Source: Deltaproteobacteria bacterium (GTDB taxonomy: Bacteria; CG2-30-53-67). From it: 20,000 bases of DNA. Under the pieces are notes generated by a model that saw only the letters and a list, made by a program, of their open reading frames with translations, did no database searches and was not told where the DNA came from. Each line of letters begins with the position of its first letter. The first letter of the stretch is position 1. The translations under genes were made by a program, and so were the position numbers. Positions 12,298 through 19,832 of this stretch are shown one piece after another. The DNA is taken from NCBI GenBank assembly GCA_013151235.1, contig JAADIO010000019.1:51926-71925 (forward strand), in the 5' to 3' direction.

Positions 12298-12326
12298 TTT
12301 ACAAACGATGCGGATTCCGTTATAAT
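12298..12326 (+). promoter_or_regulatory. Sigma70-type promoter candidate directed toward selB
   Basis: TTTACA (12298-12303), 17-bp spacer, TATAAT (12321-12326). The inverted repeat CGGATT/AATCCG overlaps the -10 box. Confidence 0.55.
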
Positions 12327-12556
12327 CCGTCAACGCTTTCGCTTATTTTTCAATATGTTTCGTTGTTGCCGAATACCATCGATACGGCAGGGGCGATTGT
12401 ATCGACGCCGGAACCCTGTAACGGTTTCTGTCTTATATAAACGATGATGAATAAAAAACAGATGGTAATCACTTGTTTTATTAATATTTTATATCATTTT
12501 ATCGTCTTGAAGTAAAGTCAAAAATTGTGTGATACTTTTTTGGCGGGGGGAGATCA

Positions 12557-12715
12557 AGGGGCAAAGGCAAGGGGCAGAGGGGCAAAGTCACAGAGGGACA
12601 AAGCAACGTAAAAGGCAAAAGCGGAAAGCGGCATCTCGCAGAGGACGCAAAGGGCGCCAAGGAAAAACAAAATCGAGAAAGCAATTTACCATGAAGCAGA
12701 TGAAGGCCATGAAGA
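12557..12715 (+). repeat. Purine-rich composite periodic repeat block upstream of selB
   Basis: 8-bp GGCA(A/G)AG(G) units at 12557-12603; 9-bp triple CGCAGAGGA-CGCAAAGGG-CGCCAAGGA at 12637-12663; 9-bp triple ACC-ATGAAGCAG-ATGAAGGCC-ATGAAGA at 12688-12715. Confidence 0.85.
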
Positions 12716-12784
12716 AGACCGATGCCGGGTATAAACCCTGTCGCGTCCCGGTTTAGCCGGGACGGGGAGCGGAAAGCGGAACCT

Positions 12785-14689
12785 ATGAAACACCTTATCC
12801 TGGGAACCGCCGGCCATGTGGACCACGGAAAGACCGCCTTGGTGCGCGCCCTGACCGGAGTGGACACAGACCGTCTCGAAGAAGAAAAGAAACGGGGGAT
12901 CACCATCGTCCTCGGGTTTGCCGAGATGGAACTGCCCGGCGGGATCCAGGTGGGGATTGTCGATGTACCGGGCCATGAGCGGTTCGTCAACCAGATGCTC
13001 GCCGGTGTCGGTGGGGTTGATATGATCATGCTTGTTGTGGCCGCCGACGAGGGGGTAATGCCCCAGACGCGGGAGCATTTCGATATCTGCCGCCTGTTGA
13101 ACGTCCGGAAGGGACTGACGGTGATCACCAAGACCGACCTTGTGGATACGGAATGGCTCGCACTCGTACAGCAGGATGTGGAAGGCCTCATTGAGGGGAC
13201 CTTTCTGGAGGGAAGGCCGGTCTGCCCGGTTTCCGCGAAGACCGGGGACGGGATGGGTGCGCTGAAAAAATCGCTGGCCGAAATTGCCGGGGAGGTGGAG
13301 GACCGGGATTCCCGCGGGATCCTGCGTCTCCCCGTGGACCGTGTCTTTACCATGAAGGGATTCGGAACGGTGATCACGGGGACCCTGCTCTCCGGCAATG
13401 TGAAAAACGGAGAGGCCGTGGAGATTCTGCCGGGCGGGCTCCAGGCCCGGGTTCGGGGGATGCAGGTTCATTCCAAATCGGTGGAGGAGGCGCTGGCCGG
13501 GCAGCGGACGGCCCTGAACCTGCAGGGGGTGGAGAAAGAGTCGATCCGCCGGGGGGATACGGTCACCGTCCCCGGTCTGCTGACCCCGACCTATATGGTC
13601 GATGCCGTGGTAACGCTTCTGCCCGATGTGGAGAAACCGCTGAAAAACCGTTCCCTCATCCGGTTTTATATCGGGGCGAGCCGAGGGGTCGGCAACATCG
13701 TCCATCTTGACCGGGAACAGCTCATGCCGGAGGAGCAGGGCTATGCGCAGATTCGTCTGCGGGAACCGGTGGTCGCCATGGGGGGGGACCGCTTTATTCT
13801 CCGCTCCGTCTCGGAGAACCGGACCATCGGGGGAGGGGAGATCCTCGACCCGCAGCCCCGGAAGCACAAGACCTCCGATCCGTCCGTGGTTCCCTCCCTG
13901 GAAGTCCTGAAAGAGGGAAGTCCCGAGGAGAAGGCCGTTGTTTTTCTCCGCCATGCCGGATTCTCCGGAATGGACCTGGCCGGTTTTCGTTGCCGTCTCC
14001 CCTTGGCGAAGGGGACGGCAAAAAAGATCCTCCAGCGGCTCCGGGAGCGTGGCGAGGCGGTGACTCTCTTGGCTGATACCCTGCATCTGCTCCATATGGA
14101 TCATCTTAAAAAGATTGAAAAGAAGACCTTGTCTGTCCTGACCGGCTATCATCGGAGCAAACCCCTGGAGCCGGGGATTCCGAAAGCGGAGCTGGCTTCC
14201 CGGCTCTCAACGATGATCGGGGAAAAGGTTTTTCCGTCGATCTTGAACCATCTTTCCCGCGGGGGGAAGGTGATTGTAGAGGAAAACCGGGTCCGTCTCC
14301 CGGAACACAAAGTTTGCTTGACCTCCGAAGAAGAGGAGGCGGCCCGTAAGATCGAGGCTCTTTATAAAGAGGCCGGGCTTGCTCCTCCCTACTCAAGAAA
14401 GCTTTCCGGAGAACTCGGATTAGAGGAAAGTCTGGTTGCCGAAATCCTGCGGCATCTCGTAGAACGGAAAAGTCTGACCCATATCCAGGGAGATCTCTTT
14501 ATGGACACAAAGGCACTTGAAGCGGGGAGGGAAAAGGTGCGGGCCGTTCTCGAAGGAGAGGGAGAAATCAGCGTTGCAGGGATGCGGGAACTTTTGGGAC
14601 TAACAAGGAAATACCTGATCCCCCTGTTGGAATACTTCGACGGGATCGGGTTTACGGCGAGAAAAGGGGATGTGCGGGTTCTGCGATAA
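12785..14689 (+). CDS. selB: Selenocysteine-specific translation elongation factor SelB (634 aa)
   Basis: [17 protein letters not shown]...EEKKRGITI...DVPGHERF...PQTREH...TKTD GTPase motifs; C-terminal winged helix ending [14 protein letters not shown]...RKGDVR. Confidence 0.98.
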
Positions 14690-14696
14690 AGAATCG

Positions 14697-14810
14697 AGGG
14701 GCAAAGGCAAGGGGCAGAGGGGCAAAGGCACAAAGGCACAAAGGCACAAAGTTAAAAGCAAAGGCAATCACAAAAAGCCTTCACCATGAAGGGCATGAAG
14801 GAATTGAAGA
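14697..14810 (+). repeat. Second copy of the purine-rich composite repeat block, downstream of selB
   Basis: 14697-14727 is identical over 31 bp to 12557-12587, followed by three GCACAAAG units. ACCATGAAGGGCATGAAGGAATTGAAGA (14783-14810) parallels 12688-12715. Confidence 0.88.
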
Positions 14811-14872
14811 GATCAAAACCAAAGGCAAAAGCAAAACTTATGGAAAGAGCAAAGTCAAAGGCAAAAAGCGAA

Positions 14873-14904
14873 GAACCACGGGGAACACGGGGAGTCACGG
14901 GGAA
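14873..14904 (+). repeat. Left arm of 32-bp inverted repeat enclosing the GxxExxY gene
   Basis: GAACCACGGGGAACACGGGGAGTCACGGGGAA (three CACGGGGA units); its reverse complement matches 15320-15351 at 30/32. Confidence 0.95.
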
Positions 14905-14908
14905 GGCA

Positions 14909-15316
14909 ATGAATACAGCCGATAAAACGCAAAAACGGCTGGTAGACTGTGATGACCGGTTAATAGATGTTGTTCTTGATGCTGCAACGTCGGTCCATTG
15001 TGAATTAGGACCCGGTTTGCTTGAATCCGTTTATGAAAAGGCCTTGATGGTGGAATTGGATGAGCGGGGAATTCCGGCGGAATGTCAGACTCTGATTCCG
15101 GTCCGTTATCATGGTCAGGACCTTGGGATGGGGTTCAGAGCTGACATCCTTGTCGATCGCTCTTTGTTACTGGAATTGAAGTCAGTCAAAGAAATCATCC
15201 CGATTCATATATCCCAAGTGATTACCTACCTGAAACTGTTGGGGCTGAAAAGAGGGTATCTGTTGAACTTTAATAAGCGGCTGATGAAAAATGGGATGAA
15301 GAGAATCTCTATCTGA
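14909..15316 (+). CDS. GxxExxY family protein (PD-(D/E)xK nuclease-like), 135 aa
   Basis: VHCELGPGLLESVYEKAL (GxxExxY), FRADILV...LELKSV (PD-ExK), QVITYLK...GYLLNF...GMKRI. ATG 14909 was chosen because the longer N-terminus in the ORF track is only translated repeat. Confidence 0.93.
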   Translation: MNTADKTQKRLVDCDDRLIDVVLDAATSVHCELGPGLLESVYEKALMVELDERGIPAECQTLIPVRYHGQDLGMGFRADILVDRSLLLELKSVKEIIPIHISQVITYLKLLGLKRGYLLNFNKRLMKNGMKRISI

Positions 15317-15319
15317 GGT

Positions 15320-15351
15320 TTCCCCGTGACTCCCCGAGTACCCCGTGGTTC
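15320..15351 (-). repeat. Right arm of 32-bp inverted repeat enclosing the GxxExxY gene
   Basis: TTCCCCGTGACTCCCCGAGTACCCCGTGGTTC begins 3 nt after the stop codon; an extra CCCCGTGGTT lies at 15393-15402. Confidence 0.95.
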
Positions 15352-15412
15352 AAGCTTTTCGGGGGTTGCTTTTGGGGGTTTTGAAAAAAATCCCCCGTGG
15401 TTAAAAGGTGTC

Positions 15413-15880
15413 ATGTCCTCTGATCTTTACACACAGGCGGAATCGCTTTACCGTTGCGGCGAATACAGGCGTGCGAAGCTCCTCCTGAAAAAGGAGGTCC
15501 CCCGGTCCGATTGTGATCCCCGTCTTGTTTCCCTCTACGGACTCATTCTTGCCCGCTTCGATGCAAGCTTCTACGGTTTTTCCCGCGGGCTCAAATGGTG
15601 CGGAGCTGCGCTCAAACGAAATCCCGATGACCCCATACTTCGTCTCCACCTTGGACTCGTCTATCTCTTCCACGGACTTCGTGCCCGGGCCGTCGTTCAT
15701 CTCGATGCAGCGCTCGCCATGGCCCCCGACGACCCGGCGGTCCGGGAGGCCCGGGGCCTCATGGGGTTTCGCCGCCGGCCCGTGATTCCCTTCCTTTCGC
15801 GGAAAAACCCCCTTAACATTCTTCTCGGTAAAACAGCCGTTTGGCTGAAAAAGACGTTTTCCCGCGAATTTTCTTCTTGA
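15413..15880 (+). CDS. Small tetratricopeptide-repeat protein (155 aa)
   Basis: TPR-like helices (AALKRNPDDPILRLHLGLVYL...AALAMAPDDP); C-terminal GFRRRPVIPFLSRKNPLNILLGK motif that I recognise from deltaproteobacterial TPR proteins; AAGGTG precedes the ATG. Confidence 0.75.
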   Translation: MSSDLYTQAESLYRCGEYRRAKLLLKKEVPRSDCDPRLVSLYGLILARFDASFYGFSRGLKWCGAALKRNPDDPILRLHLGLVYLFHGLRARAVVHLDAALAMAPDDPAVREARGLMGFRRRPVIPFLSRKNPLNILLGKTAVWLKKTFSREFSS

Positions 15881-15987
15881 CGGATCGAATATTCGGGTTT
15901 TATGATTGTTGAATATGATTGCTTTTTATTGGGTTTGTATGTGTGTTTTTTCCAGTTTTTTGGAAAGAACATTTTGACTTTTTATTC

Positions 15988-16016
15988 TTGACATATCTAA
16001 AAAGCACTGATATATT
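15988..16016 (+). promoter_or_regulatory. Near-consensus sigma70 promoter for the cyc2-like gene
   Basis: TTGACA (15988-15993), 17 bp, TATATT (16011-16016) with extended -10 TG at 16008-16009, in an AT-rich intergenic region. Confidence 0.7.
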
Positions 16017-16224
16017 TCTCAACCAATTAATCATATATTTCATGTAACTATCAGTTTTAACAAACATTAACCGCTTTTTCGCGGGGTGTCGGGATCGTAT
16101 CGGGTACCTTGCTGATCGATCCGGAAGGGGGTGATCACGGAAAACAAAACGTAAAGAATTGTTTGGAAAGGACAAGCTTTGTGTTTTAAGAGGACAGACA
16201 ATAAAAAATTCAAGGAGGACAGAC

Positions 16225-18854: not shown

Positions 18855-19832
18855 TCAAGTCTGCTCTTGGCTCTCCTCTACCTTCTTTTCTATCCGTTTC
18901 ACCTGGTTACGCAGGGAAGGGGTCTGTCCCAGTCGTCTCTTGACTCTTTCGATGCTGCTACTGACGGAGCTGTAATTTTCAATATCAAAGATTCTGCCGA
19001 TTTCCACCAAAGTTGCCCGGCAATGACGGCGTACGAGGTAAATGGCAATATTCCTGGGCAGGTTTTCTCTCCCCCTCCGTGAATGGAGGAGCTGTTGCCG
19101 GTTGATCATGAAATGGCGGATCACCTCTTTGATGATTGCCTCGGGTGACGGCGCCAGAACACGTGATTCCGGAATCTCGTTTTGGAACCGGAGTTTTTGA
19201 AACTGTTCTTTGATCCGATTCTTAAAGGAGTCACTGCCCAATATGGATGGCAGATTTTTTAATGAATAGAAATGTTCGACCGTATCGGGGATTCTTCCGG
19301 TCACGAATTCAAGGTAAGCGGACCGGCTGTCCTTTTGTCCGGAAAACATGGAGATCAGCCCATCCTTATATAGCCACTTCCATTTTCCGGCGCTGGAAAG
19401 GTAGCCTTTGTGGCTGCTCCATGCAAAGTCTTCCATCTCCTTTGCCAGCCCGGCATCTATGGGATTCCTGTGGATATAACGCAGGACGTCGAGGAGGTAT
19501 GAGTCGGCATCAATCAGTACGGCTTTGTATCTCCCGCGGAAGAGAGAGCCGTCCGTTTCGTACGTCCGGTTGAATCTCTGTGTGTAGAGACCGTTGAGAT
19601 GCCGCATGCAACGGGCGAGGTTGCCGTCCGGTGTTTGCACCAGAAGATGGTAATGGTTGGGCATCAGACAATATGCGGATACTTTGAGGTTCCACATTTT
19701 GGATGTGTCCCGGAGGATTTCCAGAAATCCAAGATAGTCTGAATCGGACAGGAAGACCTTCTCCCTTCTTCTGCCCCGATTCATGACGTGATACCATGCT
19801 CCGGGATATTCTACGCGCAAAGGTCTGGACAT
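18855..19832 (-). CDS. Y1_Tnp (REP-associated tyrosine transposase-like) with C-terminal DnaA-like HTH, 325 aa
   Basis: RPLRVEYPGAWYHVMNRG; HUH motif YCLMPNHYHLL; catalytic YIHRNP; WSS; C-terminal PRNIAIYLVRRH...TLVEIGRIF...YSSV. The stop codon lies inside the inverted repeat. Confidence 0.93.
   Translation of the reverse strand: MSRPLRVEYPGAWYHVMNRGRRREKVFLSDSDYLGFLEILRDTSKMWNLKVSAYCLMPNHYHLLVQTPDGNLARCMRHLNGLYTQRFNRTYETDGSLFRGRYKAVLIDADSYLLDVLRYIHRNPIDAGLAKEMEDFAWSSHKGYLSSAGKWKWLYKDGLISMFSGQKDSRSAYLEFVTGRIPDTVEHFYSLKNLPSILGSDSFKNRIKEQFQKLRFQNEIPESRVLAPSPEAIIKEVIRHFMINRQQLLHSRRGRENLPRNIAIYLVRRHCRATLVEIGRIFDIENYSSVSSSIERVKRRLGQTPSLRNQVKRIEKKVEESQEQT

Follow-up and report, generated by a model that had tools for sequence, protein, structure and literature searches.

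The window considered here, the whole stretch of DNA that was analysed, is 20,000 nt long. Between selB and the gene of a TPR-repeat protein, it carries a small gene of the GxxExxY family that is enclosed by two inverted copies of a short repeat module (Table 1). The two modules, here called arms, and the gene between them form a cassette that extends from 14873 to 15351.

Table 1. Features of the selB-TPR region (positions in the window)
Feature	Positions	Strand	Description or evidence
Second patch of cassette-type repeat mosaic, upstream of selB	12540..12760	+	repeat comparison
selB	12722..14689	+	selenocysteine-specific elongation factor; TIGR00475 (3.4e-126, aligned from residue 26); GTP_EFTU and SelB wing domains in Pfam; upstream, co-directional
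Purine-rich mosaic of other dispersed modules	14690..14872	+	CAAAGGCA runs, CCATGAAGGGCATGAAGG module, AAAAGC leader
Left arm	14873..14904	+	GAACC terminus and three CACGGGG units (14877, 14886, 14896)
GxxExxY / PDDEXK_3 gene	14909..15316 (stop codon included)	+	135 aa; family HMMs
Right arm	15320..15351	-	inverted module copy, three units, GGTTC terminus
Outer extension AAGCTTTTCGGGGG... and further partial unit CCCCGTGGTT at 15393-15402	15352..15404	-	repeat search (I5, D12, D16)
TPR-repeat protein gene	15413..15880	+	Pfam TPR_14, TPR_19; downstream, co-directional

A repeat search of the window gives two arms of 32 nt that lie 415 nt apart and are complementary at 30 of 32 positions (94%). 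Their local-alignment score of 27 corresponds to z = 16.7 when compared with 100 shuffles of the upstream flank. The fit around the gene is close. The ATG (14909-14911) stands 4 nt past the end of the left arm, and the right arm begins 3 nt after the TGA (15314-15316).

Each arm consists of three CACGGGG units. In the left arm these occupy 14877-14883, 14886-14892 and 14896-14902, a period of 9 and then 10 nt. The last of them also forms a Shine-Dalgarno-like GGGGAAGG stretch 5' of the ATG. The right arm is pyrimidine-rich on the sense strand and therefore anti-Shine-Dalgarno-like. The peptide EPRGTRGVTGK is encoded both in the open reading frame 14786..15316 (+) and in the frame 15226..15414 (-). 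When the gene is read from 14786, the extra N-terminal part consists of translated repeats only. Outside the arms, AAAAGC and GCTTTT are complementary to each other and represent the conserved leader of a dispersed repeat family.

The mosaic that precedes the left arm contains the direct repeat families D1-D8 and has BLAST matches on many contigs. About 70 nt of it are held in common with the spacer upstream of selB. That spacer is itself a purine-rich mosaic (12540-12785), and the listed start of the selB frame falls inside it. Because the family match begins only at residue 26 and 12722 sits within the mosaic, the start of selB is probably the ATG at 12785. The closest named match to selB has 66% amino acid identity and comes from a record labelled as an uncultured Nitrospirota genome, which makes an origin of the window in this phylum probable.

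The protein of the cassette matches PF13366 PDDEXK_3 with an E-value of 1e-38 (132.7 bits, cut-off 22) and TIGR04256 GxxExxY with 3.5e-38 (130.5 bits, cut-off 35). Searches of Pfam and NCBIfam return only these two families for the gene and no known transposase family. The initial annotation, made from the sequence, had described a 30/32-bp inverted repeat tightly around a GxxExxY gene, three units per arm, the peptide on both strands and the outer AAAAGC/GCTTTT extension; all of these are present, and both family scores lie above their cut-offs.

GxxExxY/PDDEXK_3 is a large family that crosses phyla, and the survey table of PMC3424549 gives the function of PF13366 as unknown. The residues of the PD-(D/E)xK site (E39, D79, E89 and K91) are intact and, in an alignment, invariant in 19 homologues. 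G34, Q103 and N120 are likewise invariant in these homologues and Y42 is nearly so. An AF2 model of the protein has a mean pLDDT of 94.5. Structure searches with it bring up only PD-(D/E)xK-type nuclease domains, namely BpuSI (Z 7.7), SSO0001 (Cas4-like, 7.6), 3ijm (7.6) and Hjc (6.2). None reaches Z of 8 or more and no single match stands out. A Foldseek search with the same model found no match at E of 1e-3 or below, and a sequence search with the protein found no relatives of solved structure.

The gene is single-copy in the window's genome, which comprises 2.62 Mb on 73 contigs, and related genomes have 1-8 matches each. Six of 72,556 plasmid records match the family, and there was no match in the phage collection that was searched.

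Dispersed modules and orthologous spacers

The arms are ordinary members of a repeat family. A pattern scan of the 2.62-Mb genome finds 28 copies of the arm module, of which two are the arms of the cassette and the other 26 are singlets. The consensus is a AAAAGCAT-type leader, then AACC, three CACGGGG words and AA. The two mismatches between the arms fall at positions that vary across the family. When the genome is compared with itself by BLAST, it yields 15 inverted pairs of 22 nt or more with an identity of 85% or above and a distance of 100-3000 nt, and only the cassette pair is built of the CACGGGG module.

The 26 singlets sit in intergenic spacers, within mosaics of other short purine-rich modules. 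Their orientation is biased. Among the 23 solo copies for which a crude gene caller gives an upstream gene, the purine-rich strand is the sense strand of that gene in 19 (p = 0.0026). Other types of module, with CATGAAGG, CGCAAAGG and CACGGAG words, are also present. Since the genome has one GxxExxY gene, these types are without a cognate gene of their own.

Several contigs of the window's own genome (G000), namely C9, C37, C42, C52, C64 and C66, end in or beside a CACGGGG module that is followed by another shared segment. Thus, the modules appear to break the assembly. Two further repeat families, GTCGAAGGGCTTCGTGAC... and CCGTTCGTGGTGAGC..., form long inverted pairs 2.1-3.0 kb apart (contigs C2, C6 and C43). 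Rfam gives no relevant match, and no rRNA, in 12300-16200, nor a relevant match at two other repeat loci.

Related genomes allow the site of the cassette to be compared. In five of them (G001, G003, G004, G005 and G006), selB and the TPR gene have matches on one contig, and no GxxExxY match lies on those contigs. G001, G004 and G005 align well over both genes, whereas G006 has a partial TPR match and G003 one of only 31 nt. In G001, which belongs to the same genus, the selB-TPR spacer is 358 nt long, compared with 713 nt in the window, and holds a different inverted pair made of CACAGAG, CGCGGAG and CACGGAG words. In G005, which belongs to another genus, the spacer has a CACGGGG left arm and two copies of the right arm, without the gene. 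The right arm and its flank in G005 are 90% identical to 15322-15373 of the window. Matches at this site are confined to arms and flank, and no gene remnant was found there.

Three further spacers with solo modules were compared with G001, G002 and G005. The first is an empty gap of 8 nt in G005, while G000, G001 and G002 each have a module mosaic there, the three being unrelated to one another. In the second, the words are CACGGAG, CACGAAG and CACGGGG in G005 (contig C51, locus L211) compared with three times CACGGGG in the window's genome (C15:19425-19447). The third has one and a half words in G005 and two modules in G002. The main matches of the flanking genes at the compared spacers have 72-84% DNA identity. 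Modules are therefore gained, lost and remodelled far faster than the flanking genes diverge. Despite the different words, the flanks of the two modules at the second spacer are nearly identical, which points to homogenisation of words within a genome.

The number of modules also differs widely between genomes. A tandem pattern (CACGGGG, 1-4 nt, CACGGGG) has 45 matches in the window's genome. Four genomes from other groups, whose GxxExxY genes have CACGGGG arms as well, have 13, 163, 191 and 35. The reversed pattern, used as a control, has 0-5 matches in these five carriers. There are 11-37 matches in the relatives G001, G002, G005, G009 and G013, 1-6 in four further relatives and none in the remaining 21, which include four genomes of the same family. 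CACGGGG tandems are thus absent from 21 of the 31 genomes searched.

One model for such repeats is that they serve the host. The modules would be regulatory or structural elements of spacers, such as standby sites or mRNA stabilisers, and the GxxExxY protein would be a domesticated maintenance enzyme or a passenger. The solo modules do follow transcription (19 of 23), their units are purine-rich and Shine-Dalgarno-like, and at one spacer an orthologous module was kept in another genus with its units changed. However, host-serving elements are hard to reconcile with the fast turnover and the presence or absence of modules at orthologous spacers, including the one that is an empty 8 nt. Their patchy occurrence and the position of the closest proteins in other phyla also speak against the model, which is considered improbable.

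Packaging of homologous genes

Inverted repeats around the gene are not peculiar to the window and recur beside homologues in many bacterial phyla. Among 95 homologous loci whose flanks were sufficient, 64 have a significant flanking inverted repeat, with significance set at a score of at least 14 and z of at least 6. The remaining 31 have no significant inverted repeat. The 95 were drawn from 100 loci with a match of at least 95 residues, which came from 30 relatives, a single-protein scan and a pattern scan at one genome per species. The pattern scan contributed the best 80 of 594 confirmed stretches, with a pattern taken from a six-row alignment; because all of its loci came by way of the peptide GPGLLESVY, this sample is biased to one motif. 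The count excludes the window's own loci, L020 as a duplicate, and loci that had been retrieved for a different purpose.

The repeat-flanked loci have a common layout. In 41 of the 64, the right arm begins within 20 nt 3' of the stop codon. Purines make up at least 60% of the left arm in 43 of 65 pairs, the window's own included, and no more than 40% of it in three. Arms share an architecture of two to four C-R-Y-N-R-R-G words spaced 8-10 nt apart. From locus to locus the words themselves vary; they include CACGGGG, CACAGAG, CGCAGAG, CGCAAAG, CACCAAG, CACGACG and others. When neighbouring genes are called crudely as longest open frames, the upstream one points the same way as the cassette at 38 of 40 callable loci (p = 1.5e-9), and the downstream one does so at 33 of 42.

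Another alternative is that the gene of the window landed by chance between two existing copies of an abundant repeat. The repeat is indeed abundant in the spacers of this genome. Nevertheless, the orientation of the right arm is shared by only four of the 23 solo copies whose upstream gene was called, just 4 and 3 nt separate the arms from the start and stop codons, and the packaging recurs at 64 of 95 loci. A chance juxtaposition is very unlikely.

Some individual loci depart from the common layout. At L011 (G007:C180), the GxxExxY gene lacks its 3' end, and its shortened frame runs straight up to the right arm. This locus is a natural deletion form that retains both arms. At L004 (G005:C3), the only GxxExxY gene of G005 has a complete ACAGGAT-type hairpin at each side, unlike the usual one arm per side, and one hairpin repeats the other in direct orientation. 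Finally, L032 and L033, from two genomes labelled Propionivibrio, have a cassette at the same site, with proteins 55% and 57% identical to that of the window. Their arm words differ, with CACGGCG/CGCAAAG at one and CACGACG/CACAACG at the other, and both arms of each pair changed together.

Arm type can be compared with the phylogeny of the protein. A quick IQ-TREE analysis was made of 95 proteins, with one locus excluded for an internal stop. On this tree, arm type requires 45 changes, compared with a mean of 56.0 when types are shuffled; none of 200 shuffles gave a value as low. The five genes with CACGGGG arms form one clade (SH-aLRT 85; as low in none of 500 shuffles). It consists of the window's gene and L035, L047, L048 and L049, the latter from records labelled Elusimicrobia, Sulfuricellaceae and, twice, Gemmataceae, so that by these labels its members belong to four phyla.

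The proteins most similar to that of the window are the other four with CACGGGG arms, at 59-65% identity. The GxxExxY proteins scored in the genus-mates and in other relatives are 37-48% identical and have other arm types. The gene of G005, which was read outside the identity scoring, likewise has arms that are not of the CACGGGG type. The clustering of arm types shows that the arms are co-inherited with the gene, which is not in itself a demonstration of recognition. With the closest proteins in other phyla, this inheritance is therefore not purely vertical.

The pairing of modules with genes is looser. The relatives G001, G002, G005, G009 and G013 all have GxxExxY genes, and none of the CACGGGG clade was found among them. 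Because these five genomes have modules and no gene of the clade was found, the pairing is not one-to-one, with the reservation that their assemblies may be incomplete.

Gene-less copies were examined in the carrier with 191 tandem matches. There, 15 loci were selected for forward and reverse matches lying close together, and all 15 are gene-less doublets. Each runs from TGAACC through three words into a variable loop of about 30-130 nt, and then through three inverted words to GGTTCA. These termini are the same as those of the carrier's own cassette and of the cassette in the window. The loops differ among the loci, apart from two small subfamilies, and are not remnants of the gene. No consistent target-site duplication was found at the cassette of the window or at these 15 doublets.

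A further model is homing-type invasion. Here the nuclease would cut gene-less doublets of its own type, and repair would paste the gene into the loop, so that the arms would be target and homology rather than the ends of a transposon. Homing endonucleases of the PD-(D/E)xK fold do exist. The gene occupies the place of the variable loop between identical termini, and in G005 the corresponding site has these arms and lacks the gene. Efficient homing, however, predicts many copies of the gene, and there are few (one here, 1-8 in relatives) compared with many gene-less copies. Arms of 30 nt would also provide only short homology for repair, and the loops of the doublets are unrelated to the gene. 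Invasion of this type is accordingly given a slim prospect.

The cassette in its predicted transcript

No sigma-70-like promoter was found in 14400-15700. The arms pair with each other in the predicted RNA of 14850-15375, in the MFE as well as in the centroid structure. The folding energy is -202.5 kcal/mol (z = -6.78), and none of 100 shuffles was as good. The predicted stem would mask the Shine-Dalgarno-like last word of the left arm.

Another model thus places the function of the arms in RNA, after the manner of an intervening sequence. A stem in the selB-TPR transcript would loop out the reading frame and hide its ribosome-binding site, and cleavage of the stem by RNase III would make the insert tolerable in operons; the protein would have no part in the movement of DNA. 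The pairing of the arms agrees with such an element, as does the left arm, with its Shine-Dalgarno-like stretch and its end 4 nt from the ATG. Orientation agrees as well, since cassettes lie in sense behind the upstream gene at 38 of 40 loci and solo modules have their purine strand in sense in 19 of 23 cases. So does the layout of 23S rRNA intervening sequences (PMC4990558), which can carry an open reading frame of the S23p/four-helix-bundle kind. These resemble the cassette in being a small reading frame within stem-capable inverted repeats, about 430-480 nt long and inside a transcription unit. Unlike them, the cassette lies between selB and the TPR gene rather than in rRNA, and its frame encodes a predicted nuclease fold rather than PF05635. 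The window's genome has one partial match to the four-helix-bundle family TIGR02436.

If the arms were maintained as an RNA stem, their mismatches might be expected to preserve G-U pairing. There is no excess of changes compatible with G-U on the sense strand (51 compared with 41, p = 0.35), nor does Rfam provide a match. The model also leaves unexplained the link between arm type and clade, the spread of gene-less copies and the conserved active site. As a full account of the cassette it is unlikely. An RNA role of this kind is nonetheless compatible with a selfish cassette, and both may hold together.

Models for mobility and comparison with known systems

The favoured model, held with moderate confidence, is that 14873-15351 is a promoterless selfish cassette that rides on an operon, and that the dispersed modules are its gene-less relatives. 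The cassette would be a PD-(D/E)xK (GxxExxY) nuclease gene between inverted three-unit modules with the fixed termini GAACC...GGTTC. Its gene-less forms, single modules in the window's genome and hairpin doublets elsewhere, would be spread over intergenic spacers. The nuclease would recognise the phased units and cut at or near the arms, and cutting would move or copy the arms together with whatever sits between them. Transcription of the gene would depend on read-through from selB, and pairing of the arms in the mRNA would mask the ribosome-binding site and keep synthesis of the nuclease low.

Evidence for a selfish cassette comes from several sides. The bracket around the gene is tight and not due to chance, being the sole CACGGGG inverted pair with a z of 16.7. 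Dispersed arms accompany a single-copy gene, as in REP/RAYT systems. Packaging is general, arm types cluster on the protein tree, and all four other hosts of the clade carry dispersed CACGGGG tandems. Doublets have the termini of the cassette, and the gene is absent from the site in relatives. Orthologous spacers turn over, and the active-site residues are invariant among the homologues. The lack of a detected promoter and the co-orientation with upstream genes point to dependence on host transcription.

Against this, the form that carries the gene is single-copy here and shows no consistent target-site duplication, and the 26 singlets are not readily made by a mechanism based on hairpins. There are orphan types of module, and five relatives have modules with no cognate gene found. 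About a third of the homologous loci (31 of 95) lack a significant repeat, and the fold is a generic one, with a best Z of 7.7. No vehicle for transfer is evident from the plasmid and phage searches. The orientation bias of cassettes and solo modules equally suits a constraint at the level of RNA.

The initial annotation had offered a compact selfish element of about 480 bp, or a long RNA stem, and had envisaged gene-specific inverted repeats beside many GxxExxY genes. The discrete cassette is borne out by the flanked loci, and the stem by the predicted pairing of the arms. The expectation that the gene would not be conserved at this locus also holds, since none of the five relatives with selB and TPR matches has a GxxExxY match on that contig. 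What does not stand is a lone element whose arms are private to the gene. Because the arms are members of a 28-copy family, the layout is closer to that of REP/RAYT than to a lone transposon with unique ends.

A broader model can be put forward tentatively. GxxExxY proteins would be the enzymes of an undescribed class of bacterial mobile DNA. As minimal PD-(D/E)xK nucleases, they would read phased arrays of 7-nt words at GAACC...GGTTC termini, and they would move or copy the arms and their cargo into short gaps behind co-directional stop codons. A literature search outside supplementary files found no description of a pairing between GxxExxY genes and repeats.

Being linked both to phased inverted repeats and to dispersed gene-less copies, an orphan family, GxxExxY/PDDEXK_3, gains a testable role. 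It would also account for the origin of the spacer repeat mosaics that break assemblies in many uncultured lineages. If the broader model is true, such elements would seed populations of gene-less modules and shape the spacers of operons in many phyla. If the enzyme moves the repeats, this would be a second partnership of repeat and nuclease, with a fold different from that of RAYTs. A small nuclease that reads sequence might also serve as a tool.

Like a MITE and its autonomous insertion sequence, the cassette exists as gene-carrying copies and far commoner gene-less copies with shared terminal inverted repeats. Unlike those elements, it has no known transposase family and no target-site duplication was seen. 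The loops of its gene-less copies, unlike those of MITEs, are not deletion remnants of the gene.

An integron cassette is a promoterless single open reading frame, sense to host transcription and bounded by an imperfect inverted-repeat sequence, with one attC downstream. The GxxExxY cassette likewise is a promoterless single frame, lies in sense behind host transcription and has imperfect inverted repeats as its boundaries. The differences are that its arms stand on both sides of the frame, that the locus is without integrase or attI, and that GxxExxY cassettes are scattered singly between housekeeping genes.

The closest known parallel in layout is the REPIN/RAYT system, in which, as PMC3116915 and PMC3337134 describe it, REP doublets occur with a single-copy REP-associated tyrosine transposase. 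In both cases a single-copy gene of a nuclease type is flanked by inverted copies of a dispersed extragenic repeat. Likewise, gene-less inverted doublets capable of forming hairpins occur, here in another carrier, and the type of repeat tracks the clade of the gene. Compared with these accounts, the enzymes differ in fold, a predicted PD-(D/E)xK fold in the cassette and HUH Y1 in RAYTs. The arms of the cassette are three phased 7-nt words, whereas REP sequences are self-palindromic. Finally, 26 of the 28 modules in the window's genome are singlets, mostly oriented with transcription, and the nearest proteins are found in other phyla.

A RAYT was also considered as the mobiliser of the modules and rejected. 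None of the five PF01797 matches in the window's genome has phased modules close by, and the inverted repeats at these genes are different ones. One of the five Y1_Tnp (PF01797) matches lies in the window itself, at 19464-19799 (-). Elsewhere in the genome, at G000:C27:23917-25643, inverted repeats of 31 nt bracket a Y1_Tnp gene and include a near-consensus TTGACA ... TATAAT stretch.
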